Below the pieces are notes generated by a model. It was not told where the DNA came from. It worked only from the letters and a program-made list of their open reading frames with translations, and did no database searches. A DNA stretch of 58,242 nt, filler included, from Dugesia japonica (Eukaryota): NCBI GenBank assembly GCA_001938525.1. It is 6 parts of 6 records of this genome, joined end to end, with 100 filler letters (N's around TTAATTAATTAA, not from the genome) between each part and the next. Parts side by side here need not be neighbours in the genome. Positions count along the whole stretch, not along the records: positions 1 to 8,386 come from MQRL01617679.1; 5 more parts are not named here. One strand, written 5' to 3'. Numbering within the stretch: position 1 is the first letter of the stretch; the number at the start of each line of letters is the position of its first letter. The translations under genes and the position numbers were made by a program. Shown piece after piece: positions 1-55,488 of the stretch.

Positions 1-290
1 TGACTACTGTACAATTTCATAAAAATATTATCAACTACTGTGCAATTTTTTAAAATAATTTATGATTACTGTGTCATTTCAAATTATTTTTATTGACTAC
101 TGTGCAATTTCATAAATTATTTGGAGACTTCTATGCAATAATTNAATTATTTTCCCATTCTTTTACATAGGATTTTGAAATATTTATCGACTACTGGGCA
201 ATTTCAAATTATTTTTATCGATTATTCTGCAATTTATAAAATATTTATCGACTACTGTGTAATTTTAAAAAGCTTGTGCGATCATGTGTA
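1..290. repeat. ~33-bp minisatellite (GACTACTGTGCAATTT core)
   Basis: About 8 degenerate tandem copies of gactactgtgcaattt...tattatc. Confidence 0.85.
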
Positions 291-379
291 ATTTGATAAT
301 TTAATCTTTGATGTAATTAAATCATCGGAAATTTAATCCATCAATTAAATTTATTATGTAATTTTTAATTGGTAATAGT

Positions 380-2090
380 GTTGGGGTTCCACCTGAGTTA
401 GCGAGGGAAACAAATACTGGCCGGGGAAAAACGACCCTCAGGGAAACCCCTTCAAGAATTTTATCTAACGCTTCTAGGTTAGATTTTCGATGTAGAACGT
501 TTGACCGTCTACCTTTAAAGGGGGTTCTCACTCGTACATCTTTATTTTAGGTTCATTATCTTTCCCTTATACTTTTCATGTAATGAATCAATTAACAGTT
601 TTAGTATTGAATTATACTTAGTTATACTTTTTATAACTCACCCAGGCCACCAGGGTCCAGCCACTGGGCTGGGTCTGTCTCCAAAAAATCTAAAGCAGCG
701 ATATCGTCACTGTCGTCCCACTGCACCCACGTTGGGTTCCACAGTTGACGTGACAGGTCCGACATCGATCTTCCTCTGCAATAGTTGTTTAGCCTGTTCT
801 TCCAGGTTCTTTGTTTGACTCGCCAGGTCAGTCTGATTTTTAATAATTAAATCAAATTTTTTATCAACTGGTCGCGCTGCGCAAGATGCCGCTAGAGGGC
901 ACGATCTGCTTGACGCTTTAGGTGTCTTTCGACTAAAAAGCAACGCATTATTTTGTGACATCTCTTCAAGCTATTTGGAAACGTAATTGGGACACTAAAG
1001 TAGAAGACATTAAATTTATTATTTACTAAAAGAAAATGGTATCAGATAACAGTAAAGTCAAATATAAATGTTAATGTAATAAATTTATTTAGTAATAAAT
1101 AAAAACAATTTCACGGTCGCGTTGTCTGAGTCCCTTTATTTACCATAAGTGGCATGAGAGGCAGGGCCTTTCTTTATCTCAGAATATCTTCGACCAATTT
1201 ATTTTCTCGGTCTTGGTAAGACCTGGATGATCTCAGTGAAAGATTCGACTTGGGCCTTTTAGACCATCTCCTGATTCTAGGATGTCTCTGCCTCTAACTT
1301 AAATGCTAGGCACTTTTTCTTATAGCTTTTAATCTTAGCTACGGAAGCTTTGGTGTCCGCTTCCCATCGTCTCTTGGCGAGTTTGTAGAGATCCCAGGTG
1401 ATTTCGTCATCATCACTGGTCTCCTTTAAATTCTTGGTAGGGGACGTCAATTTATTTAAAGATGAGTGCACTGAAATCAAAATAATAAACCCATTAAAAC
1501 CCCTAAATTATTAAAATACAAACACTTAATAAACTCAAAACCATCAATGGAATGCTCTTATCAATAAACACCACTACCAAATAGAAAATTGTATTTAAAT
1601 CAGGTTCCTCATTAAATTTTATTAACAATGCGAAAAAATTAAATTCAGTTAAAAGTTTATTTATTAATTATAGCGTCTCGTTCCTTGTGTAGGGTGCATT
1701 ATTTTCGGCCGACCCGCCACTAGCACTAATTCGCAAGTCCCAGAGGATATTACCGATATCAACATGGAAACGAGTACCTGGTGGAGAGTGCGCCGCGGAC
1801 ACGAGCAAAAAAGCTGGTCCGTCCCACCATTCTCTTGTAGTCGAGCCAGTTACAGGATCCACGATCAGGACGCGGTGCATAACGTCCAGGGTCTGGTTTG
1901 GGCCTCTTCACTCATAGTATTCCTTTCTTTCAGCGGCATCTTATTCTCGTTCATTCTCCGCAACGAGAAGTGGCATATTCAAATAATCGCGCATGATCCC
2001 CGCACTACGATTGTGAGGGTTATGGTATCGCTTAAACACTACCCTGTTGGTGTGGGTGTCAAGTAGAGTTTCCCAAACAAAATTCATTCC
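380..2090 (-). pseudogene. Copy 1 of an unidentified four-block spliced gene/element family
   Basis: GC-richer blocks (~1660-2087, ~1140-1470, ~640-997, ~380-570) separated by AT-rich spacers, some with AG/GT boundaries (ctttag|tgtccc; ctgg|gtgagt). All four translated blocks align with 45550-47225; stops and frameshifts are present. Confidence 0.7.
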
Positions 2091-3099
2091 TAAATTGGGA
2101 GATAATAAGTAAACAAAAGAAAAATTATTGAATTTAAGTATAATATAATAGTAGTGAAAGAGTGTAAATTGAGCAAGTAAAGTCTTAATTTTATTAGTAG
2201 TATCAATGTAATCAATGTAAACGGACTTTTAATTATGCAAACTTGGTCTAAATATACACAGATCTTAGTGTGTTTAAATAACGTAGAGCAGCAAACAAAC
2301 TTAGTTTGTGGTGTGATTGGAAATTGAGACACTCTACAATCTGACTAACTAACTGAACTAGTGAGATTCTCTTTTTGCTAGAGTTGCATGCAATTAATTT
2401 AACACATGACACTTAATGACATGATTGATATACCAATTTATAGAGATGAATGCTTTGGTTGATACACACAATCGGATACGAATATTTACATTAGTATTAT
2501 TTGATAATTATAAACATCTGCATTGATTCTCTTATTATGACATTTGCTTGTATGCCTGCACATCTTGGTTTTATTACATAAAAGAGAGTCACGAACATTG
2601 ATCAACACTATTATGTCTACTTCTGAGGTGAATAATTATTGAGAAATTATTCTAGTCATATAGAATAACAAAAATGAGAGTAAACATCAACTTTGAACAT
2701 ATATTATTTTAACATTAATAATTTTATTTCAATTACATTTTGATATAAAGAAAAATTCACAAACACATTACTTACTGGTTTATTTATTGTGATTTCTGCA
2801 ACGGGTGAATTATCGAATGAACAAGATTTGAACTAGATTTATTGAGTTTACATCGGACTCTAACTCCTTCCAAAAAAAATTAATTTGAGATAAGCGTTGA
2901 AAATTTTACTTTATATTTTTCCACTAAATTTACGATATTTCTTCGCAGTAAAATTAGTTTGGATTATCCTGTACGGACTAGTAGATTTAGTAATTTCTGA
3001 ACAATAGGTTTTCCAATACGGCAAATTAAATGAATTTTGTTGATTGTTTGACTAAAATTTTCATGGGCTTTTAAAAGATTTAGGTAACTTTTAGATAAT

Positions 3100-3400
3100 C
3101 TTAGTAAATTATTAATTACCGAGGGTTAGTTTTAAGTGAATTTGAGCAATTATTTCCTCGAGTTGGTCAGTTTGGGTCAATTTTGGATAATTTGACCAAT
3201 TATTTACTCGGTTGATGTAGTTTTGGTCAATTATATACTAGGTATATACATACTCGGTTAATTATTTGCTCACAAGGGTAATTTTTGGGTGATTGGGTCA
3301 AATTTTTCAACAAGATTGGTCAGATTGGTTAATTTGTAGGCAATATTAGCCAATTATTTCCTCAAGTGTGGTCAATTTTGGGTAATTTTGGGATGATTGT
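3100..3400. repeat. GT-rich degenerate minisatellite (TTGGTCAATT...TTCCTCG)
   Basis: Repeated ttggtcaa / tttcctcg motifs; the same family occurs at 43200-43650. Confidence 0.65.
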
Positions 3401-3499
3401 AGTAAGGATATACTAGTGTACGAGATCAGCTGACTATTATATCCCCCCCGCAGTCAGCGATTTTTGGCTTACTGACTTTACACGAAATTTTTACTAGTT

Positions 3500-3790
3500 T
3501 TCATACACAATTTATGATTTTTGTCTGGCTGAGTACAACCTTTGACTGTTTGTTAGCTCATTTTGACAGTTGTACTATTTTTTGATTGCATATTTTGACT
3601 GGTAATAACTTTTGATAATTGTTTTACTATTTTTAACTACTGTTTTATTCATTTTGACTGGCTAAGTACAATTTGTGGCTGTTTTTGTACTATTTTTGAC
3701 TGTTGGTTTGCTCATTTTGACTGCTTATTTTGACTGCTGATCTAGTATTTTGACTTTTGTCCAATTTAGACTGGTGATTATTGCTTAAGT
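3500..3790. repeat. Degenerate TTTTGACTG minisatellite
   Basis: Many ttttgactg/ttttgacag units. Confidence 0.65.
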
Positions 3791-4199
3791 ATCTATGTTC
3801 TAAATTGTAACTACAGCTTTATTGTGGTAAGTTTGTTCCACCGCCACAACTATGCTGTGATAAGTTTGTGCCACCACCACAGCAAAGCTGTGCTCAATTT
3901 TGCTGATGATCACGGCTTCGCTGTTCTCATTTAAATAGTCAATTTGGATATCATTTGTAATGAGTTTGCTGATCATTTCTAACATGCTTACCTTATGGTG
4001 AATCCTTCAAGACACTTTAAATTCTTATGTAACTGAAACAATATGGGTATTGTTCAAATTGTAATGTGATGAAAAACATTTGCAGCATGTTTACAAAACA
4101 AACAAAACTACACACAAATAATAACACAAAATAACAACACAAATTATTAAAAAAAAGAAGAAAATTTTGAATGATACACATAAACTGTTCGACTGTAAA

Positions 4200-30269: not shown

Positions 30270-30900
30270 TTCATATAACTGGAAGAAAATGCAAAGAAAA
30301 TATTAGGCGAGTTTGAACGGAATTTTGTACACAAAGCACGCACAAATACTCTTTCAATAAATGCTCGGCCTAATAACATTACTTTTGATGAAAGACTATG
30401 TTGACAATGTCATTCCCACAATGAAACAACGTCACATGTCCTACAAAGTTGTGATGTAACCAAATCATTAAGAACAAAGCGTCATAATGCATTAATTATA
30501 ATAATTGTTATAATAATTATAAAATACCCTACCTTAATAATTGTAATTGATCGTACTTGTTTTTTTGTTCCAGATTCATTAGAACTCGTTGATATTATGA
30601 TTACTGATTCGGTAAAGAAAAGAGTATTTATGTTTGATGTTAAATGCCCTATTGATTCAGCTGAAGGTTTCTTTAAAATAGAAGAAGGGAATAAAATGAA
30701 ATATTAGAATTTTAAAAACGAGATACAATTAGCAAAACTTGGTAACTATGTAGAATTTTACACTATTCCTCCTGAGACCTACCAAGTCATTCAGTACATT
30801 GGTGTACCAATAAATAAATGTTTAATAAAAAATGTGCAATCTCCAAAATACGGAATTCTGCACCTATTTGGCAATTTCGTGTATCAGGAACATATCCGCA
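30270..30900 (+). mobile_element. RLE non-LTR retrotransposon 3' end (NeSL/R2-like)
   Basis: C*QCHSHNETTSHVLQSC..RTKRHN (CCHC knuckle + RHN), then VDIMITD..KRVFMFDVKCP..F..GNKMKY (PD-D/ExK endonuclease). Confidence 0.85.
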
Positions 30901-33849: not shown

Positions 33850-34567
33850 CGGAATTTTCTTCAGTTCATATGCAACATTTTTCTGAATATCTTCCACCTC
33901 ATGAAATTCTCTTCCTTTCATAAATGTTTTCGGGTTTGAAAATAACACAAAGTCTGCTGGAGTTAAATCTAGAGAATATGGTGGATGGCCGATACATCTC
34001 CTTTCTCGGTCAAAAAACGCTTTACAATAGTTCCCTTGACAGTTAGGCTATAAAAAATAAATCGTGCAGAAATCTTTCTTTTACAAAAATCCTCAATTAG
34101 CATTTTAAGAATCGATTCTCTACTGATTTCTGTTTCGTCTTTCATCATCCTTAAAGTGATTTGTCTGTCGGTTTCAACAATTTTAATTTTATTCCGATTT
34201 TCATCATTTCTGGCGACTGATGGACATCCAATTCTCTCATTATCCATAGTATCTTTATGACCTTCATGACAACGAGAGTACCCTTAAAAATACATTGTTC
34301 TCATATATTACTTTCAACATTTCATAGGTGTCTCCATGACCATTTTATCCAATTTGTAACAAAATTCTATATTGATTCTCTTAAAAGATTAGCAGATAAA
34401 ATGAATAAACACAATTAAATAAAAAAAAATCAATAAACTTGTATTAAACAGACAGTTAATAAACTGTTTAAGAATATCTTGCTGAAAACATACAAAAACT
34501 ATGCTCACAATTGTATATAATTCGCATTCTAATAAAAGTTCAGCAACGTTATTGTCACATCTTGTAT
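33850..34567 (-). mobile_element. Internally deleted mariner relic (different subfamily from 19085-20336)
   Basis: RINIEFCYKLDK, DNERIGCPS..DRQITLRMM..RKISARFI, DLTPADFVLF..MKGREF; TIR-like tacaagatgtgacaataacgttgctgaac. Confidence 0.8.
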
Positions 34568-38082: not shown

Positions 38083-39079
38083 TATTCATACTCAAAATGC
38101 AATGATCAGTTCCATTCCATCTGAATTGTAAAGGACATCCAGGTTTTTCACTTATGCATAAATTACTGTAATATCTTCTATGACTCCATTGGCACTTTTC
38201 TATCATTTAGAAATTGAATATTTTTTTTATTAACACAAAAAAACTTTATACACTCACCATAACAATTTCTTCCTACTTGATCGTATTGTTTTGGATCACA
38301 ACCTTATAAATAATGTATTCAATAAGTTATTTCATAAATTATAAATCTCATTCCATAAAAATTAGAACAATAAAAGAATAATAAAAAGAATGTGTGTAAT
38401 TCGAAATAATATTTATAATAATATGTATAAGCAATAGAGAAACAAAAGATAAAAACCAAGAAAGAAAAAAAAGATTCCAACAATGAATCTTTGACGTGTA
38501 GTGGTTTATTTAAAGATTGCGCGGTATTATTACTCGAATAATTAAAACACAAATAACCTCTATCTAAAATACATTTCCCATCAACATTTGTGTATCGACG
38601 TGGACATCTGCTATTATGAAATCGAACACATTTATTTTTCATAGGAATTGAGTCGGATGGACAAGATTTATCGTTATTCATTGGTAAATATTCATTGCAA
38701 ACTTTTCCATCGAGTGTACCAATAAGACAATATGGATCAACAACTTCAAGAGACGAGGTAGTATCGTCATTATTTTTCATTCTTATCTTAATATAAAAAT
38801 TATGTTTTATTTTATTTATTTTTGATAATTAAATTAACTAACTTCACCCGAACTACTTATAAAATATTGTGTTTCAGCAATTCTTGAAAATTTTGTCAAC
38901 TCAAAATATAGCCTTGAAAATAATTTTAAAATTAATAAATAATAAAAAATAGATACATAAAATAAGGTTATGAAATAGTTTTATTACACCAAAATTCTAA
39001 CCATATTAGATTACTGTTTCTCAACAGCAAAAATTATAAATTGAATTACACAATAAATAATCTTGATAAAAATAAACCA
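38083..39079 (-). CDS. Secreted cysteine-rich repeat protein, 5' five exons (39015-39079, 38843-38912, 38558-38786, 38258-38302, <38083-38199)
   Basis: All four introns are GT-AG with compatible phases (2,0,1,1). Signal-like MVYFIKIIYCVIQFIIFA is followed by repeats such as CPRRYTNVDGKC, CDPKQYDQVGRNC and CPLQFRWNGTDHC; truncated by the contig end. Confidence 0.8.
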
Positions 39080-42000
39080 TCCCACGGATGGGCGAGGTTT
39101 TGACGTTCATGTATAAATAGATATTTTGAAAAAAAAAATTTTATTTATTTATTTTTTTATTTTAAAATATTTATTTAATAAACAGATCAATGGTTATATT
39201 AATTTTAAAAAGAAATTTATTTCATGTATAATATTTCTGGTTATTCTTAATCGTCAAAAATGCCCATCTCATTGTACGCAATTTGATTAGACACACAAAT
39301 GAGTTGTGCGAATGAAGAAATAACTTTTCAATATTAGTATGTAATAATTAAAACGTTATTATTACATTGCATGTGACTAGAGAGTCAAGTGGTAAATGGG
39401 TGTGTTTTCAATTGACACGATCAAAAAATTTTGAAATTGGGCAAAAATTTAATTAAAAGAAATTATAATTATTATAAGCAGTTAACAATCTACCTGTATA
39501 TCCTCCTATAGCTAGTTAGTTGTATGACAGCAAGATAAATGAACTATAATTAAAAATCTTAAAAGAGCTTCTATCTATAATTGCTATAAGCCTTTAGAAT
39601 TTTTAAATTGTTTTATTTTTTTTATAAAATATTACAAGATGGTCATGATTTATTTAGTGAATTATTTAGATAAAAATAAACATTTCTGAAGTATTTAAGT
39701 AAAAATGAATATTTTAAATATTTGGCAGAAAATTTTTATTAGTTTAATTTTATTAAATATATTCTTAAAAGTTTTAATTAATAAATAATTTAAAAACTGA
39801 ATGTTAGCTTAATGTCGACTTGTTCATATAAATAAAAACAACCACGAAGACTTAAAAAATTTGGTTTGAAAATTATAAATGCGAAATTATAAAAATGTAG
39901 TGAGAAATTTGTTTTTAATTTGAATTTTCTGGTGTTATTTTTAATGATTTATAATTTTATAAGACAAGAATTCTAATTTAGTTACCAAAAAATAATAATA
40001 TATAAAAAGTAAAAAGGTAGCGCTATTCATTAGAAATCTAATAATAATTATAAAAAGTATTAATCATATTAATTATTAACCAATCAAAATAAGGAATTAA
40101 CTACGGTATTTGCTAAAAGCAGTGAATCATTTTTTCAAAACTGTCTTCCGAAATCTAATCTATACTACCCTAGTAATTTATTGACGCGTTTTTATTTTTT
40201 TGAAGTATGGTATATAACGTAACATATTATAAACCAATCAACATTAGGAACTGAAACTACGATACTTTCTTAAAAAGACATTTTGTTATTATATTTTTGA
40301 AAACTATCATAAATATTTTATAGCAAAACAAAAATTCATCAATTTTTAATTTTAAATTGAAAAATTCCCATTCATTTTGTGACTAGACTTTCAATTTTTG
40401 TTCTGAGAATATAGATTGTATATAAATTACAATATAATTTAAATAAAATCTAGTTTTATTGGTTGTGTTAAAATTTTTATAATATTCAGAAAAGTGTTGA
40501 GATAGATTTCATACATCATATTAAAAATAAAATAGTATCACTTAATTCCATCTTAAAATAATGTATAAATAAAATCACTAATAATATTCGATGTCATTGA
40601 ATGTATTATAATACACACATCTAATTTTAATTAAAATATTTATTAATACAATCGCAATAGATAAAATGTATTTTGATATAAGTTCACAGAAAAATATTCA
40701 TTGACTTATTTAGTAGCGAAATAATCATGTAATATTGGAATTAAAATTGAAAACTTAATATGAAAACTTATACGCTAAACAAATTACAAAATTATTTCAG
40801 AAATCGATACCTAGTTTGAATTAGTTACATTTCTGTAAGAGTGTCTATTGTACATCTTTAATATACACTTCATATTTAGTATTCATTTTTCAATAGAAAG
40901 ATTTACAGCAATGAAATTATTTCGAACTAGATATCAATTTCAATAATAAAAATAATAAATGGAAAGGGTTAAAATGGAATATCAACATTATCAATTCCAA
41001 AAATGAGACAGCCACATGACAAAACCAGACAAGTTTTTACATTCGTCATTTTAATACTAAGTTTTTATTATTAATTTCATTGAAATAAATTCTTCAATTC
41101 ATTATTTTAAAAATATTTTTCGTTAAAAAAACGAAAAAATAAATTTTTCAACTTTAATATAATTTTTTAAAAATTTATTAGCTTGAAACTCAGAAATTTC
41201 ATTAAATTCTTTCAGTTTATATAATTATGCTTACTTTGATTGAATTATAGATATACCAGTAAATGCTACGAATAGTAGCAACCATATCGAACGATTTATC
41301 TAAATAAACTAGAATTACCATCAAAAAAATTATGAAAATATACCATTGAAATTAGATTTCTCAGTTAAGGAAATCCTTTTTAGTCCATATATTTATACTT
41401 ATTTTTTAAAACTAACATCTGGTTTTCAAAAATCTTTACCTAATTCTTTCATTTCAAAACTAGTTTGTCAACAAAAATGTCTGTTAGAGAAATTTAATTG
41501 AAAAGTAGATTGTTTATTATTCGGCATTGAACATTTACATTTCTTTGTTGGTTCGTTTTGTAGTAAAAGTAAAATTCCAACCCCTTATTAAACTTGTGTT
41601 AAAGGAATCATTTACTAAATAAAATTGCATTGATTAGTTAATTGATTTATTAATCTTGAAAAATGCATTATGAATCATAACAATTTCATCACAGAGGAAG
41701 ATTTAATTTACTCGTACTGGCTTGTTTGGTTTGTAATCACAGGCATTTTACTAACAGCCTATTGGACACTCTCCAACGTATATAACAAAATGTAAATTAA
41801 ACAACAGTAATTTTAGTTTCATAAAATGATGTTTTACCAATAAAATGGTGTCGAATTAAAAATTTTCAAGCCGAGGATTGTAATTGAAATTGGTGATTTT
41901 TACAAATTAATTTATAAAATAATTAATTTGAAATTTAAATCATTTAATAATATTTACATATCTGCTCAAATTTTAAATTATAAGAATAATTTTTTCTAGT

Positions 42001-42606
42001 AAAAATCGATACAAAATGGAAATTATGAAATCAATGTGGAGTAATTATGAATTAACGCAGGAAAAATTCAAATAAGTTGTCTTGTCATCAAAAGTAATAT
42101 ATAGTCTAGGACATATCCACAGGGCATGATCGCCTCTCCCCATAACAGGATTTAGAAAATACTATTAACAATAAGCAATTACTACCCACACGAATATTAT
42201 GATGCTAGTATGAGAAAGTAAAGAAGAAATGATTTAAAACAATTTTGTATCCAAAAGTTGAAATGTATTTGATAAAAATAATTTTTAAAAGTAGATAGTG
42301 GCGCACTAAACCAAATAACCTCCGACAAAGTGATCTAGAAATTTGGTTTGAAATTTTAGCTTAGTAATTTAGGATATATTTATCTACCGTAAAAATATTA
42401 AATACTAAAAATGATTAGTTAAATAAATTTTTTAATAAAATTAAGCTTTAATAGAAATTGTAATTGTTTGTTTTTTATTGTTATTTCCTCGGGAATACGT
42501 TTTGGCGATTTTTACCCATATTATTCTTACTCAGCATAAAATTTTCTTTTAAATAGATGATAAAATATGAAATACTTGATATTTTTTTGAAAAATCTATG
42601 TAAGAT

Positions 42607-43903
42607 ATTGAAAAAACCAATCAAATTGTCAACAGATTAGTATAAAAGTTTTTGAAATCTGACCATAAAAATTGTTTGTGAAAATTTTTTAAAAGTTTGG
42701 GCTGTTCACCCGTATTCCTATGAAAATTAGAATTATTTGTAATAATTTTTTTGTTTATTGTGAAAGTTACCTTTTTGGTAATTATTCACTTTTTCAAAAT
42801 TTTTAAACATTGATCTCTGAATGAGTAGAGGGATACTGGGTGTCTGCACCACGCACATTCAGTTACATCACCCTCGGTTTAGGATGTAATGAAACTTAAT
42901 TCTAATGCATTTAGTTGGAAATTTAAATATTACATCATAAATTACATTATTAGGTAATATTACTCAATTTGGGGTGGTTTTTCCCTGTCTATTTATTTGG
43001 GAAATTTTTTTGCACACAAATTATGTCATAAGATTAATTTCATCGATGAAATTTTGTGTAATAGGATTAAGTAGTGGTTTTATTTCCTGTGTATTTAGTT
43101 GGGAAAAGGTTTTAGGCTTTTTAAGTGGTAATAATTTTTAGGCTTTCTTAACAGCAATATTTTTTTCAGGCTTTTTAGTTGGGAATTTATTCGGTGACGT
43201 CGAATGAGGTCATTTTTTGATTGGTTTAGATGGATTTAGTCGAATATTTTCTCTGAAATGGTTAATTTTGTTCATTTTTGAGCGATTTGGTCAATTTTTG
43301 ATTGGTTCAGGTGAATTGGGCTCATTTTTTGGGCGATTCGGTCAATTATCTCCCCGGTATTGGTCAGTTTGGGCAAATTTGGTCGGTTTTAGGTAATTTT
43401 TGGGTGGTTTGTTCGAATTTTGCCTCGGGATTGGTAATTTTTGGTGGTTTAGGTAAAATTGATAGAAAATATAATATCCGCAGGTTTGGTTAACTTGGTT
43501 AATTTTTGGATGATTTGGTTGAAATTTCCTCGGGAATGGTTAATTTGGATCAGTTTTGGACAATTTGGTCAATGATTTCCTTACTAGGTGAAGTTTTAGG
43601 AGAATTTGAATGATAATTTTCTCGGACTGGCCAGTTTGGATTGAATTTTAAGGAAATTCATGTGAAAAGTTGAATTTGTTTAAATTTTCAAGTTTTTAGA
43701 TTTTTTATGGGAATCTTTTAAAGGAATCCGGGCCAACCATTCATGTTGTTTAAATAATATGAAAATTAAAAATAAAATTTTAAACGAAATTTTTATGAGA
43801 ATCTGGGTGAACAGTCTAAAATTTTGAAAAAAATATGTTCTTTATCTCATATTTCAAAGATTTTTATACCAAACTGCTGAGAATTTTACGGCGATTATTT
43901 TTC
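42607..43903. mobile_element. Foldback-like element with ~120-bp inverted arms and an internal minisatellite
   Basis: 42607-42727 (gtataaaagtttttgaaat..ctgttcacccgtattcctatgaaaatt) is the inverted homologue of 43788-43903; TTGGTCAATT satellite at 43200-43650 inside. Confidence 0.6.
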
Positions 43904-43949
43904 ACAAATAAAATTTTTTACTGATAATAAGGTATTTAATAAAAATAAA

Positions 43950-45370
43950 CCCATTGAACTTAAAGTCCAACCAGGGTTGCCAAGGTGCACACAGGTTTTT
44001 GGGTTGAAACACCGGATTAAAGAAGAAAATATAATCAGAGGGCTCAAGTTTGGTTATTTGGAAGAAATAAAATGAAGTAGAAGGTCTAATCAAAAATAAT
44101 TTTCATTTTGATGATAAATTGCAAATAAATAATTTAAAGAAGATCAGAAGAAATAAAATAAAAGAATAAGGAAGCGATAAAGATAATAATAAAAGTAATA
44201 ATAATCAACGCCAATTATGGAAATTATAATTTATAATCAAAAATAAGCGAAGTATTAATAAAAATATAATCAGAAATAACGAAAGAAAATTAATTAATTA
44301 TTGCAGTAAAAGAGAATTAATTACATCGGAAATCAGAAAAAGGGAATAACTTTCCATGGGAGAATCAAAAATCATCGAGCTAAGAAAAACTGAGAAGCCC
44401 TTAACCAGGGTAATTTAATGATGTAGCTGAGAAAACAGTGGCATCTTCGGAAGAATCAGAAAAAAGGCTGTAGATGTTGGGCCAATGACGAATCAAGAAA
44501 ATAAGTATTAAAATTATTATGGATCTTATTAGCATTATTAATATTATTATAATTGTTGTCGTTGCTGTTACCAATGTCATCAATACTGTTATAAATATTG
44601 TCTTTTCCATCAATATTAATATTACTATTATTATTATTATTATTTACAGTTAGCATTAATATTAATACTGTTTAAATTCATATTAATTATTCTCACTATG
44701 ATTACTGTTAATAGATTTGCTACTGAATTAACTTTAGTTTTACTTCCAACGTAATTAGTTAATAATAATAATATCCACATGGTTATGGCCTTCATTTAGT
44801 TTTTGGTGTTAGCATGATATTCACGAGGCTTTAGACCCAACGTATTACCCCTATTATTACCTTATTATTGTTATTACAATTATTATTATTGAATCAAATT
44901 ATTATCATTCTTACTATTGTTATTAGAACTTATATTGGTAATAGGATGACTAATATTACTGCTGCCAAGATTATTTTTATTGCCAATATTATTATTATGA
45001 TTATTTTTACCATGATTATTTATATTACTGGGGTGGTTAATAAAACGCGTCAACATTACTATGAATATTGGTTCCATCGATTATTACTCGCGGTATTACA
45101 CGCCGCCGTAATATTTTTTATCGATATTTTTTTGTGTCTGAACTAAACTCTCATCCGCGACTGCCCCAAATTATTGTGATTGTTAAGAACATGCCGACGA
45201 AAATGTGTAATGCGTTGCGTTTGATTCGAAAGGAGAGAAAATCGTCCCGCTTAAAACAACTCATAGGTCATTTACTTTTTCCCAAATTGGTGGAGCATCC
45301 AGATGAAACAGACCTGAACTGTTTCCTGGAGATGTTCCCGCTTGAGAACGAAGTGGATTTAGACTGAAAT
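43950..45370 (-). pseudogene. Degraded ORF with a possible C2H2-like finger and Asn-rich tract
   Basis: SCFKRD..TQRITHFRRHVLNNH (across a frameshift) followed by long poly-Asn-type coding; disrupted. Confidence 0.3.
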
Positions 45371-45549
45371 TCCTAAATTCAACACTTACCTACTATTAAA
45401 ATGTTTGCTAAATAAAATCATTAACGGCTTATTGATTTGAGTTATTTCAAATATGCTTGGAAAAAGTTGTTAACAATCAAATATTTACATTTTTTTGATT
45501 TCTCTCGATATAAATCTTTCAAATCTTTTTATTTGTTTCTTGAGCAATT

Positions 45550-47225
45550 ATAAATGGAACTAGTGCTAGATAGAAGAACTAGCCGGATGGTTTTTAAGCG
45601 CTTCACAAATCCGTTCAATAAATCTACTGGTATATTGATAGATAGGTCAAATTTGACTCATGAGGACGCAGAGCAAAAGTGGCAGTGGGATGCAAACGAA
45701 CGTCGAGCCTATCAAACTTAGACAGGCCCTGACCGTAACGTCAAGACGGTAGCTCCTATCACAACTTCTTCGGTAGATGCTATGGTTGTACGACATTATC
45801 ATCGAGAGAGCTAAACTGAATACTCATCGACTACTCTTCCTCCCGTCCATTCTCCTACTCCCTCCAAGTTAAAGGAATTCATTGATGATTATCTGTGGAG
45901 CATTAGGGACTCCGGTAGTCAATTTTGATGTGTTTATCAATAATAAAATTGTTTTATATGTTAATATTAGTTCTAATTAGTCAGGTCACGTTTACTTTCA
46001 TTAATTAAGTTAACTGTTCTTGTTAATTATCACATGTTTTAAATAGGTTACATGAGTGATGATATATCAGTTTCTTTGAACTTTGATTTACCCTAAATAA
46101 TACTTTCATATCTTCATTTAGTGAATAGTTCCGGCAGTCGATCCATTGCTCTTACCAAAAAAATACGCGAAGGTAGTGAGTACATCGACATATCCTGGGA
46201 TCTATATCGCTTGGCAAAGAAAAAATGATAGGCTGACACTGCCACAGCCAATGCCAAAGTCAAGCGTTATAAGAAAAAATGCCGGGAATACTGTCTGGAG
46301 GCCGAGGCTTCACAAGTTCAAGAGAGGTCTTGGAAAACGCAGCTAGAAACGTTCGCTGAGAGCAAGTTGGTGACTGATATTTTAGAGTTACGCAAACGAA
46401 TCCCCATTGAGCCATTGTATATAGACAAACTTACGCAAACTCCCCGAAGCTAACAGTTGAACACAGTCATCTGATTTTTATTCAATATTAAAGTTTGTAA
46501 ATTGATCTTATCTTGAATTGGTTTATGCTCTCAACGATTTTAACCCCTAATGTTTATTTATTAAGATTGCATGTTGATGTGTTCGTTTCGGATCTTACAA
46601 TTTATTTTCTTTTAGTGCCGAGAATAAGACTCTCACCTCATCTCCACTGATGTCATAAATTAATACACAAGCTGCTACTTGAGTGAAATTTTTCCAGAAG
46701 GTGTGAGCGTTCTATGTTGCGCCACCTGTCTCACCGTAATAGGCTAATAAAGAAGTTATAAATAGTAAATTGAAAACAAGACGAATTGGCGAATAGAGTA
46801 AAACAACTACTCACTCACAAAATCAATTTTTTGAAAATATATATCGCTGACCTGTCCACTCGTCTATAACTCGGAGCATGGGTCAGCAGGAACAGCGATG
46901 ATGACGAAGCCGTATTCAACCTTTCGAATGATGAGCCAGCTCAGTGGTTTGGCCTTGAAGCTCTAAACTTTATTTAAATGTTTGTAAAGAATATATTTTT
47001 CTTAAAAGTTTATTGTTAATATCTTGAGTCAGTTTAATTTAAATTGGGGAAATTTCGAACCTGAATTAAAGGTGTAACATTGAGAACTCCAAGTAAGCGT
47101 TGGGAGTCAACCAATTTGCACTGAAAATCTAACGAGGGAGATTAGGTAAATTCTTCGAGGGGACCTCTGAGGGCTGATTTTTCCCCCAGCCACATTTTTC
47201 CAACACTAACTGAGGTGGTATTCTA
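45550..47225 (+). pseudogene. Copy 2 of the unidentified four-block spliced gene/element family
   Basis: ELVLDRRTSRMVFKRFTNPFNKSTG; ISWDLYRLAKKK**ADT..AKVKRYKKKC; CHKLIHKLL..RHLSHRNRLIKK..DEPAQW; ENLT..FP.LTEV. All align in order with 380-2090 (-). Confidence 0.7.
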
Positions 47226-47884
47226 ACAAGGGAACCAAGTAGTAAGCAAAAAAGTAGAAGGATAATCAGATGATTAAAATATACTGAAATAGTTATATTA
47301 TTTTAAATAAGAAACATGTCATATCAACTCATATTCATTATCACTCAGTCTTATTATCTTCTTTTATCTCTAAATGCTACTCTTTAAAAATTAAGATTCG
47401 ATAGAAATTTGAGAAAAATATAGCTAAATATGGCTTAATATGGGTAAATCAAGAGAATATAGTTTAATCTGTTCATCGCTTATTCAATATAGTCAAATAT
47501 AATATTCACACTAAATATATATATATATATATATATATACTTTATAACTAATAACCCGAATAAACTGATTAATTATTCACCTTAATATAGTAAAATCTAT
47601 TAAACAATATATTTCTAATGTGTTTATTAATCAATTAATCACCTACTTAGAACATATATTTATTCAATCATTAAACAAGAACCATTATGAAATCTTAGAA
47701 GAAAAGATTTTGAAGATGACTGAAAAAAATGAGAAAAAAAGATGTTGTATTAATAAATGTTATATTAATAAGTGTTTTATTGAATAATTGTTTTCTTTTA
47801 TTGTTTTTATAATTAGTAAATAAATAAGTTTTTATAATTAATAAATAAATAAGTTTTTTTTAATAATAAGTAAACAAAAAACAA

Positions 47885-48130
47885 TATGCTAAATTTAGAA
47901 ACTCCCATGCAAATATAGAGATTCCCTATGCTAAATATAGAAACTCCCGCATACCACACAAAATTTAGAGACTCCCCATACCATGCAAAATATATAGTCT
48001 GCCCAAAAAAAATTTTTAATTCCGCCCTTCCAAAAGAAACATATTTTTAAATTTCCCGCAAAAAATTCCCTCCAAAAAAAAAGACTACCCTCCATACAAA
48101 AAATATTAAAATAAACACCCTTCCAATCCA
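47885..48130. repeat. Minisatellite AAATATAGAAACTCCC-like
   Basis: Several tandem aaat(a/t)taga(a/g)actccc units degenerating into A/C-rich sequence. Confidence 0.6.
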
Positions 48131-48548
48131 AAAATACAAAAAATACTCAAAAATACATCATTTCTACAAAAATACCAATATTTTCAATTAATTCATCATT
48201 TTAAGCAAAATACAGCATTTTTACACAAAATTCAGTTTTCAAAAAATTATTACGTCATACACTCCCGATAGAAAATTTCAAATAAATCTTATAAAATCCG
48301 ATAATTAATTCTCTTTCAACCCATACCACTTTTCCCCTCCCAAAANCTTTTTTAACACACTTATACTACTTACAAATATCAACCAATAAAATTCAACCAC
48401 AACCAATCATAAATTAAAGCACAATCGACATCCAAAATATTCCCCATCACATTACCTTTCCAACTAACCATCAACTACCAAAATCCATTCATCAACAACA
48501 AACATATTCACTTTCCAAATATTAATGCGTGATAACTCATCAGAGATC

Positions 48549-48711
48549 CAGTGCGCCACTACCCTCTGAAGACCGAACGACATATACCACCTCAAAAGTC
48601 CTTTAAACAATGTATAGATAGAATTTCGGTTCCAACACAAAAATACCATAAAACAATCAAAATAATATTTCCAAGATCCCAAAAATTCCATACGGGATAG
48701 TGGCGCGACTG
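48549..48711. mobile_element. Tiny MITE-like inverted repeat
   Basis: cagtgcgccactaccc / gggatagtggcgcgactg. Confidence 0.5.
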
Positions 48712-49674
48712 TATGTCAACCTTAGGTTTTCATCAGAAATTTTATTTAATCATTTGAATTAAATTCATTTTTCATGAAGTTTTGAACACAATTAACTTTA
48801 TAAGTAGTTAAATAAAATATCAATGAAAATTTTGAGTAATTTCATTTGATAGAAATACTTTTTCCTCTAATTGATTTTATCGAGTTATTGAAAAGTAATT
48901 TTTTCTAGCCTTCGTAAGCAAATATGAACCACATATTATTGTCACCTTTAAAAAATCACTTAGAAACCCGAAATTTCTTAGAAAACGCTAATGTTGTATT
49001 TTGAACCAATAAAAATCTTGCTCATATAAATAACCTGACCGTCCAGGCAGCAACTTTTGGTAAATCTTTAGCGCAAAATGATTGTGAATGAGCAAAGTTG
49101 TAAATAATCGGAAGTTTATCATTTAATTTATAATTAATAATTTATGGATTTTGAATCTCTTTTGGAATCAATCCGATAATAAGCTTACATTTGTTATAAA
49201 AAATAACATAATTGAAAGAACTTGTCTAAAAAATCCTATCAAATGCTCATACTTTTAATATACATTTAGCTTAAATTTAATTGTGTTATTGATATTCAGA
49301 AAATTATTTTTTATTCTTGAGATTTTCAGCCTGAATAAAGTTTTTGGAACTTAGTCAGGTTGTGCATGATAAACAGAGTAGCATATCATTTCTAAAACAG
49401 CGTGGCACTCTTTTGAATGGAAAATTTTGTTTTAACAATCATTAAATTATCATTTCCATAACAGATAAAAAGTAAAGATGGCGCTGCCATATATCATAAT
49501 GTTGCCTGAAAATTTTTCTCAAAAATGGTTTTTGGTTCCAAAATGTNCATCTATATTACAGGGATGTTGTTCTATTTATTTATTATTGGCCACATGAAAT
49601 TATGTGGATATCTTTTTTTGTCAATGTGAACAACGCATTTCCAAATCAACAGTAGTGGATTACAATAACTGCTT

Positions 49675-49774: not shown

Positions 49775-49845
49775 TATTATTAAATAATGTTTTATTTTTA
49801 TTCCAAATCGGTAAATCGTTGCTCATTTTATAATTTTAAAAAACA

Positions 49846-50436
49846 ATGTTTAATATAACTGAAACTGAATTAAGAGACTTGATAGATTCTAATAAATCAA
49901 AATCTGTTTTAATAGATGATAAAAAGTATTGGATTGGTAATAACATGAAAGAATTAATTAAAAATGAAGAGATTAAAAATGAAAAAAAAGTGGATTTCTT
50001 CCTCTTTTAGCTTTGATTTCTTTTATTGCAAAACCCGCAGCTGTTGTAGGAGGTTTAGGAGCAGCAGCAGGAGGAGTAGCAATGGTTGTTGTAAAAGCTA
50101 GAGAATCTTCAAAATTAGGTGTAGAAAGACAAAAGGTTGAAGAATATTTAATACAATTAAAAGAAACTGGAAACAAAATTACTCAACCATTTAAAGGTAA
50201 AGGTATCGTAGAAAGTTATAAAGGAAACGGCATTTATTTAAATCCCTATCAAGTAAAAGGTGTATACAATTTTATAAAGAATTTAATTAATCAATCAAAC
50301 TTGCCAGAAAACTTGCCAATCAAACTTGTCAATAAAATAAGTAATAAATAAAACAGGTAAAAAATTAAAATTAGGTGGCATTGTTAAAATAAAAGCATCA
50401 AAACATGGTTTAGAAATATATATGCGTCCTTATTAA
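49846..50436 (+). pseudogene. Polinton/adintovirus virion core-like (pX-type) protein, two frameshifts
   Basis: ATG 49846, frameshift in the A-run near 49985, then SGFLPLLALI..GGLGAAAGGVA..GKG..GNGIYLNPY; frameshift near 50350, ending HGLEIYMRPY*. GFLP / AGG / GxGxYLxPY is a recurring motif set in these elements. Confidence 0.75.
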
Positions 50437-50449
50437 TGAATATTTAAAA

Positions 50450-51125
50450 ATGTATGAAAATAGAATTGCTTTATTGAAACAATTAATCAAAGAACAAGAT
50501 AAATATAATAATAAAGAATTATCTGAAAAAAACTGAAGCAACAATTCTAAATGATGTTTTAACTCAACAACAAACACCTACATTAAAAGCATTAGAAAGA
50601 ATAGATAAAACATTATTAACACACAGCTAGCTTCAATTAAAAATACTAAACAAACTAAACCAGCTATTAAGGATAAAAAGGAATCACAAAAACAACAACA
50701 AACACCATTAATTGATTCTGATAATTATGAACCGTTTGATATGAATAAAGATATTACTAATTCGATAACAGCAACAATTTGTCCTGCATTTACAAAAAGA
50801 AAAAATAAATTATTTAAAATTTAGAATTATAACTATTAATAAGCATCCTTTTATGCTTTATAAAAGAAATGGAACACAAAATATATGGTCACAATTAGAT
50901 AAAATTGAATTTGAATTTAAAAATGATTTAAAGAATTTAATGCTAGGTAACTCAAGTAATAAAGATGAAATTAAAAAATATTTAAATTTATTATCTTTAT
51001 GTAAATCAACTTCGTGTAATTATATTAGAAGTTTAAAACATTATGCTTTATCTAATAATGGACCAATAATTCAAGAAGGAAGAGGAATTGAAATAATAAG
51101 TCATCTTAAAAACATTTGGTATTAA
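50450..51125 (+). pseudogene. Fragmented hypothetical viral protein
   Basis: Continuous coding-like sequence (MYENRIALLKQLIKEQ..TPTLKALERID.. to ..GRGIEIISHLKNIWY) broken by frameshifts. Confidence 0.5.
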
Positions 51126-51165
51126 TACTAAAACAAATTTTGATTTAAAAGAATACTCTATTCAA

Positions 51166-51519
51166 TTGAATTTATCTGGTAAAATATTAATGAATGACGA
51201 GCTTTATAAATTAAAAACAACTAAGAAATACAACGTTATTATTAATTATCAAAACTCAAATAAAAACGGATCTCACTGGGTTTGTTTTAAAGACAGACTG
51301 TTTTATTTCGATTCATATGGTATTAAACCTACAGATAAAGTTGAAGCTTTTTTAAATATAGATTATTTTTATAACAAAATACAATTACAACCAAATGAAA
51401 CAAATATATGTGGTATATTATGTCTTTATGTTTTATATATGTTAAACAGTACAGATATTTCTTTTGATAAAATTATTGATTCTATTTACTCTGATTTAGA
51501 AACACTTTTGAATAAGTAA
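51166..51519 (+). CDS. Adenain-type cysteine maturation protease
   Basis: IINYQNSNKNGSHWVCF..YFDSYG..QLQ....ICGILCLYVL: catalytic His, Asp, Gln and Cys all present; 5' end probably frameshifted. Confidence 0.92.
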   Translation: MNLSGKILMNDELYKLKTTKKYNVIINYQNSNKNGSHWVCFKDRLFYFDSYGIKPTDKVEAFLNIDYFYNKIQLQPNETNICGILCLYVLYMLNSTDISFDKIIDSIYSDLETLLNK

Positions 51520-51553
51520 GTAAATTACTGAATAATTTATCACAAATAAAAAA

Positions 51554-53004
51554 ATGAGTACTTTTATACATACAAGCAAATCTGGTTCAACTATTCAATC
51601 AAAGGATTTTAATTTAGAAGATGTTATTAAGCATACTGAGGCTAAATTAGCTAAATCTTTAGAATACAAGTTACATAATAAAATTACTAGTGAGATAAAA
51701 AATCTTGATAAAGTTTATGTAAATGAATCGGGTGATAAAATAAAAAAACTAGAAGTTATTCAAGAACCTAAAACTGATAATGATGTTGTAAATAACAAAT
51801 ATTTAAAGAAATATACTGATCAATTTAAAAAGGATCTTCTTCGTGATACAGATAATAAACACAGTTTAGAATAGATACATTTATTACTAGAGTAAATGAA
51901 ATGATGGAAACTAAAATATCAAAATTTAAATCTAAATTAGATAAAGAAATTAAAGCTTTAATAGATAAAGAAATAAGTTCTTTAAAGGATACAGTGAAAA
52001 AAATCGAGATAAAATCAAATGATAAAGTTAATCAAGTTACATTTAATACTTTTAAACAAGATCAGGATAAAGAAATGGAATCTTTAAAAGATAGCGTGAA
52101 AGATGTTGAGTTAAAACCAAATGATAAAATAAATCAACTTACATTTAATACATTTAAACAATATCAAGAAACAATGATTACTAATAAATTAAATAATAAT
52201 AATTTACCATTACCTTTCTTTAAAAATTTATATATTAATACTTTTAATAGTGATTTATTAGCATACATTAATAATAAAAGAGCATATGAGAAAACTTTAT
52301 AGTTTAAAAATTAGGTTTTGGTTATCATCTCATTTTCACTTTGGTATAGATATTATAAATGATCATTTAAATTATGAAGATTTAAGTGGTAATGGATTAA
52401 CTATAAAAAGAAAACCTGATTTAAGATTGAGAAATACACCATTAGACAATACCACTTCCCATAAATGTTTTTATTTAAATAAAAAAGATCCGTTTATTTC
52501 TAATTTATGAATTTAGACGTAACTTTGTTTTTATTATTCTTTTTAATAGAGAAAGTTATTCTGATTCCAAAGGCGCGTTTATTAAAGGAGGTGAATCAAA
52601 TAAAAATATAATAGAAGAATATAAAGGATATACAAATTATACAATACGAATAATTATATCATGATCAAAAAATTAATTTAACTTTCTTGAATTATCCTCC
52701 TAAACCTTATCCTAATTTATTATATATCGAAAAGAAAGGAAATCAAATTATTCTTAATCAAAATAATCGTCAAAATGAACAATGCATTAATATAAAAAAA
52801 GATTTTGAATTTGGTAAACTAGTTATAGGAGATATAAATACGAGCGGATATATTTATGAGTGTTTATGTTATGAAGCTAGCGACAAAATAAATAACAATG
52901 ATATATTTAGACAATTTTTCGCCCTTTATACTACACAAGCAAGAGTAGCTCGTGATGTTAATAATAATAATAATGAAACAATTATAAAAGCAAAGTTTTA
53001 TTAA
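51554..53004 (+). pseudogene. Putative fibre/spike protein: stalk motifs, coiled coil, LamG/ConA-like C-terminal domain (4 frameshifts)
   Basis: VYVNESGDKI and PKTDNDVVNNKYL stalk-type motifs; duplicated 34-aa repeat; IRFWLSS..EDLSGNG and LVIGD...GYIYECLCY. The ORF-track pieces join by single-base shifts. Confidence 0.6.
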
Positions 53005-53055
53005 AGCATAAAATATTAATTTTATTAAAAATATAAAATCTTAATTTTTTTAAAA

Positions 53056-53675
53056 ATGGAGAAAGAATATGATAGTATTTATCCTGATACAAATGAAGAA
53101 GATAAATATTTAGATCAACCAGTAAAAACTGCATCTTTAGCTGATTATAAGAACAAACTTAAAACATTAAGAATTAAAGATTTTGTAAATGATTTAACAT
53201 TCTTAACTGATAAAATAAATCATTATAATAAATTATATAGAAGATGGAAAATGTTTGATANNNNNNNNNNNNNNNNNNNNNNNNNNNNNNNNNNNNNNNN
53301 NNNNNNNNNNTTTATTTGGTGCAGCAGGTATAACAATAACCGTTTTAGCTACAAGTGGTATAGTTATTTTAACTTTACCTGTTAATATACTTGGTGCATT
53401 TCCTTTACCAAATTTAATTATTCATGGTCTTTTAAACATTGGCTTAATTAAAAGAAGAAAATAAAATATAATGATTTAATTAAAGAATTAGAAACTAGTA
53501 AAAATAAATTATTTCTATATCATCAGAAATGTTTACATAATAATATATTAACAGATGAAGAAATAAATACTAGTAAAACAATTGTTAGTGAAATCAAAAG
53601 TAAAATATTAAAGATTAAAACAGATAGTATAGTTAATAATATTAAAGAAACAGAAAAAAATAATACTTTTTATTA
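53056..53675 (+). pseudogene. Membrane-active (GasderminX-like) Polinton protein
   Basis: Basic helix HYNKLYRRWK, Gly/Ala-rich hydrophobic hairpin, then KKYNDLIKELETSKNKL..KCLHNNILTDEE; gap and frameshift inside. Confidence 0.65.
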
Positions 53676-53805
53676 ACAAAGCTAAAGAAAATGGAATATT
53701 TAATAAAACAAGCTGCGCCAAAAAGTACTAAAGAAAATAAGTTAGAAATAGATTATAATTGTTTAAATTGTAAAAAATTAAAAGTTAAATTTAATATTTA
53801 AAAAA

Positions 53806-54193
53806 ATGTTGCAAATTAATAATCATATTAAAAAAATTGGTATTAACCATGTATTAGAAAATAAAATTAAAGAAGAATATAATAAAATTCCACAACATAA
53901 TAAANNNNNNNNNNNNNNNNNNNNNNNNNNNNNNNNNNNNNNNNNNNNNNNNNNAAAATTGGTATTAACCATGTATTAGAAAATAAAATTAAAGAAGAAT
54001 ATAATAAAATTCCACAACATAATAAAAGGCTGCAATCTAATTTCCTGGCCACTTTATATTTAAATTTATTTCATCCTAGTGAGGTTTATGAAAAATTTAA
54101 CTTTATCGAAGTATTAAAAAATTATAATGTATATAATGGTAATTTATTTACTTGGAATGATCCTCGTGCAAATCTCTATAATCGATGGGTGTA
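53806..54193 (+). CDS. Small hypothetical viral protein (spans a gap with duplicated flanks)
   Basis: MLQINNHIKKIG..NKRLQSNFLATLYLNLFHP..WNDPRANLYNRWV* once the gap duplication is collapsed. Confidence 0.45.
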
Positions 54194-54235
54194 AGATGTG
54201 TAATTAGTCAATTAAATTTTTAATTATAATAAAAT

Positions 54236-54556
54236 ATGTCAAACGAAATGATTAATTATTTTGTTAATAGTAAAGAATTTAAAAATGAAATTAACGATGA
54301 TTATATAGCTGTGAATAATTTATCACATGCAAATAAAATAGCATTAGCACCTGAATTATTTGTAAAATTAAAACAATGTGAAGCAGCTGTAAAATTAGCT
54401 GGTCAAACAATTATTAATTTAGATATTGAAAATGAGGTTTTGGTTCAACAACTAGAAAAGTATGATAAATATGATCAAGAAGTAATAGATAAAGCAATTA
54501 AATTAAAAGAATTAGAAGAATCTGATAAAGATCATCATCATAGATTAAAACGTTGA
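54236..54556 (+). CDS. Hypothetical coiled-coil viral protein
   Basis: Intact 106-aa ATG ORF in the viral gene run. Confidence 0.55.
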   Translation: MSNEMINYFVNSKEFKNEINDDYIAVNNLSHANKIALAPELFVKLKQCEAAVKLAGQTIINLDIENEVLVQQLEKYDKYDQEVIDKAIKLKELEESDKDHHHRLKR

Positions 54557-54793
54557 TTATTTCAAATTTTAGACCAGTGTAAGAATATAAAATAAAATAA
54601 TAAAGCAAATATTGAACCAATAAATAAAATACTTTGATTTTTATCTCTCTCTTCTATAATATTAACCAATATATTTAACTTATTGCAAATATAGCTTAAC
54701 TGCGCCGATTTTATCTCAATTTCAAAGCGTACGAGATGTTTATTCATCTCATAAAATATTTCTTCATCTGTTTGTTTTCTTGTATTGTTTTTG

Positions 54794-55237
54794 TTAATAT
54801 TTGAATTTTTTATTGTTGGTAATTGACCGCGGTTGATCGTGGTTGTTTGAAGTCAGGATTGTCCGCGGTTTGTCGCGGCCAATTTGAGACAATGCGAAAA
54901 AGTGATTTGTTAGATATTCAAGTTCTTTATCAGTAAAATCAATTAAAAAGTTTAAATGTTCAAAATCAATAATTGATGCATTATGTATCACTATAAAATT
55001 AATTAAATCTTTATTACTTTGCTTTGAATATAAAGATTGTAATAAATATATAAACGATTTTAAATATCGCATATATTTATAGTAAGTTTTTCTTTTTATT
55101 TGAAAATCTGTTTCTAATGTAAAAGCTTCTAACATTTTCGGCACGCTTTTGAATTGTTTATTCTGTTGTAATAAAAATATTGATGCAATAATATTATAAA
55201 TTTCTATAAATGTTTTCTTGTTATTAGGAACAGGCAT
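54794..55237 (-). CDS. Hypothetical viral protein
   Basis: Intact 147-aa ATG ORF downstream of pPolB. Confidence 0.55.
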   Translation of the reverse strand: MPVPNNKKTFIEIYNIIASIFLLQQNKQFKSVPKMLEAFTLETDFQIKRKTYYKYMRYLKSFIYLLQSLYSKQSNKDLINFIVIHNASIIDFEHLNFLIDFTDKELEYLTNHFFALSQIGRDKPRTILTSNNHDQPRSITNNKKFKY

Positions 55238-55488
55238 TTTTATATATATTAAATTCGATTATTATTTAAATTATCATTATAAAATCTTTTATCTATTTTG
55301 ATTAGACTTTAAAATTATATATTCTTGAAGCTTTGTTGTTTTTTCGCCATTTATTTTAAAATAATTTATTACATCTTGAAATTCTTCTTCATTTAAGATA
55401 TAATAATGCTCATTATCTTTATTACAATAATTTTCATTCATATTTTTTATAATTTTTATTAATATTCATTAAAAAGTTAAATTAATAT

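Follow-up and report, generated by a model that had tools for sequence, protein, structure and literature searches.

Two decayed copies of a protein-coding repeat unit in Dugesia japonica: a probable long terminal repeat with putative U3 genes

Introduction

The window analysed here, a 58,242-nt stretch of Dugesia japonica DNA with 26% GC, consists of contigs strung together with N44-TTAATTAATTAA-N44 linkers and contains two copies of a locus in which GC-rich blocks alternate with AT-rich spacers. What kind of unit is this? The original prediction described it as a four-block spliced gene, either the cargo of an unclassified mobile element or a member of an expanded, lineage-specific gene family. 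The answer depends on whether the blocks encode protein, on where the unit begins and ends, and on how its frames could have been expressed.

Results

Setting of the two copies

The copies lie on different contigs, as had been stated, with linkers standing between them: the first contig (1-8386) contains copy 1, and the fifth (38083-49674) contains copy 2. The collinear GC-rich blocks A to D that had been reported for the two stretches were confirmed (GC 43-49% in copy 1 and 40-45% in copy 2), as was the absence of similarity between the spacers, which have a GC content of 19-27% and compare with z = -0.2, 0.3 and 1.2. Eight public sequencing runs, all from one organism, match the window wholly or partly, six of them with more than half of its words; no RNA run is among the listed matches.

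Blocks A, B and C evolved as protein

Five protein sub-blocks compared between the copies gave z = 8.6-26.6 (1,000 shuffles each), and the observed score was never reached by any shuffle. Over 293 aligned codons of A to C, identity at codon positions 1, 2 and 3 was 0.55, 0.67 and 0.33. A, B and C evolved as protein, under long protein-level selection and with their silent sites saturated. Both copies are now decayed and dead. Stops, which had been pointed out for copy 2 only, break copy 1 as well: they occupy 6 of 330 codons in copy 1 and 6 of 322 in copy 2 (about 18 expected from shuffles in either case, spans counted), and frameshifts are present besides in both. Among the 11 aligned stop-codon pairs (blocks A-C, both copies), 4 have adjacent G/A differences at two positions, which may reflect tandem deamination or simply divergence between families.

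In copy 1, which is read on the minus strand, ORF A (1668..2087; 139 codons) has its own ATG, a pyrimidine-AG ending at 2090 and two stops. ORF B (1111..1470) follows an AG/TG acceptor ending at 1471, has no upstream Met and is broken by stops and one frameshift; ORF C (631..994), also broken, follows an AG/TG acceptor ending at 995. The end stops of both B and C are aligned with those of copy 2. In copy 2, on the plus strand, ORF A (45554..45928; 124 codons) begins with ATG after a pyrimidine-AG ending at 45544 and has two stops, ORF B (46122..46453) is a frame without Met that follows an AG/TG acceptor ending at 46121 and has two stops, and ORF C (46616..46977), with stops and frameshifts, follows an AG/TG acceptor ending at 46615. 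ORF C is basic in its N-terminal half and acidic-aromatic at its C-terminal end; in copy 2, Lys and Arg together account for 23 of 110 residues of B and 19 of 119 residues of C. Paralogy among A, B and C was unsupported: of 12 pairwise cross-scores, 11 fell between z = -1.3 and 2.5, and one was 5.1.

A fourth ORF upstream of A, common to both copies, was likewise not supported. Upstream of ORF A of copy 2 there is an open 57-aa frame (45194-45367, +) that is not common to copy 1, and for which an Atlas search gave a weak lead only; a decayed, Asn-rich, antisense coding-like stretch (44480-45100, -) in the same region is absent from copy 1.

Searches for relatives of the three proteins

Pfam gave nothing at the curated cut-off for any of the six ORF translations. 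In a set of 5.8 billion proteins, none of the 61 candidates near the length of A was a match, nor were any of the 35 near the length of B or the 746 that were longer; the B query found no match among 1.84 billion representatives. Against PDB sequences, the best E value for C was 0.63 and B had none. A resemblance of A to the PARP14 macrodomain was rejected (E 0.3 in PDB, non-significant; no Pfam family for A at E<=1). Such blank protein searches are weak evidence of novelty, because the sets hold called genes, among which spliced or broken ORFs are unlikely to be found. The structure model of A was unusable (pLDDT 38.5). That of B from copy 2 (pLDDT 73) is made up of three helices, of which the first is short and the second has 41 residues, and fold searches with B gave a best E of 4.5 in BFVD, nothing in PDB, and generic coiled coils only (Z<=5.3) in VIA-align. 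None of 598 pattern matches in metagenome contigs and none of 43 in viral contigs was related, and the end motif was found in neither.

Block D is a conserved DNA-level element

Block D had been read as the last part of the protein. We found instead that it is a conserved, non-coding nucleic-acid element: the copies are identical at 132 of 184 bases (72%) with 7 gaps, identity by codon position is 0.73/0.67/0.75, with no codon-position bias, and stops occur in all three frames of both copies. The peptide ENLT..FPSLTQV is a by-product of this DNA conservation. A single gene of four exons encoding one four-block protein is not supported, since D does not code for protein and aligned stop codons terminate B and C.

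Block D of copy 1 with the sequence upstream of it (379..616, -) contains a TATA-like sequence (616-611), an initiator-like TCATT (586-582), an AATAAA (546-541), a stem-loop near 463-484 (-) and a terminal att-like end. Block D of copy 2 (47029..47228, +) has an initiator-like TCAGTT at 47029, an ATTAAA at 47065 and the 3' end TCTAACA. The A(A/T)TAAA lies 40 nt (copy 1) and 36 nt (copy 2) downstream of the initiator-like motif, and 167 and 163 nt, respectively, from the 3' end. This hexamer is frequent: 1.8 kb of copy 1 contains 11 sites and copy 2 has 6, and only its aligned position counts. In the direction of the ORFs, both copies have the order initiator-like motif, candidate poly(A) signal, end. 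This is the order of U3-R-U5 and would place D in R-U5 and A to C in U3, in sense orientation. The motif set of D in copy 1 (candidate promoter, candidate poly(A) signal and end) is as given in the accessible text of PMC3601003, and we infer that 379..616 is promoter-R-U5. No RNA start or end was mapped from public reads over 280-3250. The stem-loop comes from a fold of two sequences, which has too little depth to establish structure. The idea that D might be a ribozyme was set aside because no tRNA was found in the region and no Rfam family reached the gathering score.

Ends, target site and insertion

Extending the flanks, as had been suggested, yielded TGTT…AACA ends and a target-site duplication (TSD) around copy 1. 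The extent first given for this copy, 380-2090, proved too short; the true unit is 379..3003 (-), 2,625 bp long, with the 5' end TGTTCAG and the 3' end CCCAACA in ORF orientation. It is bordered by ATAG at 375..378 and again at 3004..3007 (both +). In the 900 nt examined on the upstream side in copy 1, ATAG + TGTT recurs once, at 3003; the TSD+TGTT pattern arose by chance in 3.4% of 3,000 simulated 900-nt regions. The consensus of LTR integrase ends is TGTTRNR…YNYAACA, according to the part of PMC3601003 that is accessible, and copy 1 fits it at 6 of 7 positions at the 5' end and 7 of 7 at the 3' end, as does the 3' end of copy 2 (7 of 7). Similarity between the copies stops at the shared …AACA, the last 100 nt inside giving z = 12.4 and the next 100 nt outside z = 1.4.

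The 5' end of copy 2 is less clear. The 900 upstream nt of the two copies could not be aligned with each other (z = 0.5), and no TSD was found for copy 2. A tentative and weak candidate is TGTTGGG at 44475..44481 (+), with which the unit would be 2,754 bp long; 44475 is one of three full-consensus sites among 27 TGTT sites in 3.5 kb, and upstream of it lies the most purine-rich 15-mer (12 of 15), at a switch from A-rich to T-rich sequence. With its 5' end at this position, copy 2 is possibly a 3' LTR.

Public reads and contigs were compared with 280-3250 at a likeness of at least 80%, and the outcome gave independent support for both ends of copy 1. DNA contigs leave the reference at 372 (15 contigs) and at 377 (36 contigs), where a different high-copy repeat is interrupted. 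An empty-site-like contig matches the window at 9 of 11 letters past 377, with the element and one copy of the TSD skipped (by eye), and one X8 contig joins 377 to 3198, a weak junction with a 21-letter side. Copy 1 is inserted inside another repeat.

The recipient is a very high-copy, low-complexity repeat found at 1-378, 3004-3400 and 42900-43600 and present in poly(A) reads. At 42900-43600 it precedes copy 2 by about 2 kb, with its orientation relative to the copy reversed there, and an insertion preference for this repeat is possible.

Ends of this kind are also found in Ginger1/2 DNA transposons, which have TGTNR ends and 4-bp TSDs and some of which are about 2.6 kb long and contain introns (PMC2836005). 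A non-autonomous cut-and-paste transposon of the Ginger type, with integrase-like ends and cargo genes, is nevertheless a very improbable reading. Ginger ends are inverted repeats of 40-270 bp (PMC2836005), whereas the two ends of copy 1 agree over only 4-7 nt, and no terminal inverted repeat of at least 14 nt pairs them among the 25 longest of 27 pairs. In addition, the polar layout of putative promoter, poly(A) signal and end fits an LTR, and the six ORF translations contain no Gypsy-integrase-like Pfam family at E<=1, although a non-autonomous copy may lack the transposase.

The weakest alternative, that the stretches are pseudogenes which belong to a host gene family specific to the lineage and were duplicated together with their flanks, agrees with the exon-like and intron-like composition, with the strong past protein selection and with the absence of a TE domain by Pfam in the ORF translations, but it is very improbable in view of the sharp shared end at an att-like motif, the TSD, the insertion inside a repeat, the death of both copies and the lack of called protein relatives in the two protein sets. 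The integrase-type ends, together with the position of the unit inside another repeat, make the expanded host family that had been offered as one origin unlikely.

Relatives and RNA

The other origin that had been offered, multi-copy cargo of a mobile element, is upheld by many related contigs, without a known homologue. Contigs about 83-88% like copy 1 cover 2255-2637 and D, and the repeat therefore reaches well upstream of A. Depth at the copy 1 locus was 9.7 in DNA run X3, in which summed depth was 493-3,973 over D, 494 over part of C, about 245 over part of B and 56-275 upstream. The same run gave 9-20 distinct contigs with other letters at 497-680. Many relatives exist, and summed depth is no measure of their copy number. 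The core of A (1780-1979) has no relative at 80% likeness. The core of B (1356-1396) is matched by two contigs of X8, possibly an RNA run, that depart from copy 1 in either direction; they may belong to a further family.

Two poly(A) runs were sampled to about a quarter of their reads. None of 251 aligned reads in one and none of 34 in the other was 99% like copy 1, and most map to the repeat that flanks it. Over 380-479 the two runs gave depths of about 20 and 3. Over A to C the depth was 0-0.8, and a check for junction reads, proposed with the original prediction, found no joint matching a spacer. D regions of relatives are present in RNA on both strands; copy 1 itself shows no sign of expression in the two runs at the sampled depth.

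Separate cassettes or exons of one gene

A pyrimidine-rich AG lies 45 nt or less upstream of all six ORF starts (product of shuffle nulls 3e-4), the landmarks for these starts having been chosen independently of AG. In copy 2, the starts of A, B and C account for three of only four pyrimidine-AG sites in 1.8 kb. B and C open with AG/TG and have no in-frame upstream Met in either copy; A has its own ATG. Sites resembling donors near the block ends are non-consensus. Of the predicted splicing, then, the acceptors are conserved and the donors are weak. The acceptors, the missing Met, the aligned stops and the poor donors together point to three cassettes reached from an upstream leader, and three separately spliced accessory genes would fit best; given an LTR, we regard three cassettes as likely, by analogy with known systems. 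The weighing of cassettes against a two- or three-exon gene, clearly tilted towards the former, is a judgement.

One could envision instead that, within the same LTR, a single accessory gene has A, B and C, or only the last two, as its exons, and retains its introns because the unspliced RNA is the form that gets copied. Copy 1 can indeed be spliced in frame from A through B to C on GT-AG, in phase 1 at A/B and phase 2 at B/C. Towards the end of A, the two copies share a phase-1 GT at an aligned codon. A phase-2 GT in copy 1 immediately precedes the stop of B and would by itself generate the aligned stop, a second AG in copy 2 gives phase 2 before C, and the AT-rich spacers are of intron size. 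The phase of the C acceptor, moreover, is unlike between the copies (34 vs 35 nt), which speaks against separate cassettes. Nevertheless, we consider this scenario unlikely. The candidate donors GTGGCG, GTCAAT and GTGAAA are far from the consensus GTRAG, the aligned place before the stop of B lacks a GT in copy 2, and the GC-rich sequence of copy 1 continues beyond the A donor for about 50 nt until it reaches a stop.

Other elements in the window

A decayed Polinton/Maverick-like segment at 49775-58242 contains family-B polymerase fragments (-), with Pfam DNA_pol_B_2 at E 4.6e-4, below the cut-off, and a second polymerase fragment lies at 15211-15578. The ORF at 51100-51519 has a His/Asp/Cys pattern that we take to be adenain-protease-like, with no Pfam match. 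At 13037-14416 (+) there is a 459-codon open frame of 84/252-nt tandem repeats, rich in Glu, Asn and His and without a Pfam family. A protein-kinase exon at 24183-24557 (-; Pfam Pkinase, E 2.8e-20) is presumably PIM-like, judging by its motifs. Fragments at 15784-16176 (-) and 30405-30707 (+) presumably resemble R2-type endonucleases, and one at 33969-34283 (-) presumably resembles mariner transposase; these have no Pfam match.

Discussion

The element had been left unclassified, and its class can now be named from the LTR-type ends, the target-site duplication and the candidate poly(A) signal. Both stretches are most likely decayed copies of a retrovirus-like element's end-repeat, which at 2.6 kb is unusually long. 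Copy 1 is very probably a solo LTR, and its retroelement was probably Ty3/Gypsy-like, a TSD length of 4 bp being in favour of Gypsy. Copy 2 shares this design and would represent a distant family, as either a solo or a 3' LTR. Neither reverse transcriptase, integrase, gag, a primer-binding site nor a second LTR was seen. The model as a whole, a solo LTR whose inferred U3 carries three separately spliced, now broken genes, seems to us rather probable.

According to this model, an integrase would have put a full element into another repeat, and recombination between its two LTRs would later have deleted gag-pol, leaving one LTR. In the active parent, transcription would have started near 585, just upstream of D, and D of the 3' LTR would have supplied the poly(A) signal at which the transcript ended. 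Splicing might have joined a donor located in the 5' leader to whichever acceptor precedes A, B or C, in the manner of MMTV sag, with the leader supplying the start codon of B and C. A, B and C would then likely have been expressed from the 3' LTR as separate spliced messages.

The copies resemble the LTRs of animal Metaviridae (Ty3/Gypsy), as far as the accessible text describes them, in the short inverted ends TGTT…AACA and the poorly conserved U3, and putatively in a poly(A) signal near the 3' end and an AT-rich/initiator promoter (PMC3601003). Unlike those LTRs, copy 1 is 2.6 kb long and has three protein-coding frames in U3, in an element known from its LTR alone. The acceptor of MMTV sag lies just upstream of the ORF in the 3' LTR, according to the part of PMC3026287 that is available. 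MMTV, a betaretrovirus of vertebrates, has a single ORF and an LTR of 1.3 kb (PMC3026287), whereas here there are three ORFs and an AT-rich eukaryote host; the LTR ORFs have no sequence similarity to MMTV sag.

Also comparable are Burro/GYPSM1, giant planarian Gypsy elements that have internal regions of up to 25 kb and a total length of more than 30 kb, in the account available from PMC6431247. By our own arithmetic these sizes imply LTRs of about 2.5 kb, near the 2.6 kb of copy 1. Likened by description only, Burro is rich in accessory ORFs and has an AT-rich host, as is the case for the copies here; its accessory domains lie in or before the polyprotein, and that account mentions none in the LTR (PMC6431247). 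Small accessory proteins of Gypsy-type elements also include CERV of Cer1, which is made from a spliced mRNA and exports genomic RNA (accessible part of PMC10309623), and sORF1/2 of the MDG1 group, placed upstream of gag or downstream of pol in the available text of bioRxiv 10.1101/2025.03.14.642691. They are like A to C in this respect and unlike them in that no homology was detected and an LTR location is not described in the text at hand. Because B and C are basic and helical, one might imagine nuclear or RNA-binding accessory roles for them, in export like that of Rev, Rem or CERV or in host modulation; by analogy with CERV and Rem this is our best guess at a function, though a doubtful one.

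LTRs are usually taken to have no coding role, and those that occur solo are masked as junk. For a complex vertebrate retrovirus, U3 protein genes have been described (MMTV sag). No invertebrate retrotransposon with an LTR-encoded ORF was found in the literature searched, the coverage of which leaves out most subscription papers and Repbase; the primary description of Burro may already report ORFs in such LTRs. We propose tentatively, at somewhat less than an even chance, that an invertebrate Gypsy lineage of the complex retrovirus type exists in which three unrelated U3 accessory genes, each with its own acceptor, share a common leader, and in which this three-gene layout was kept across families that are only 35-47% identical in protein. 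If this is true, three orphan protein families under long purifying selection would be added, and one could test directly if large Gypsy elements of invertebrates exert control over themselves or their host in the manner of complex retroviruses. With the genes located in the LTR, a three-gene cassette would spread through the host genome with each solo LTR.
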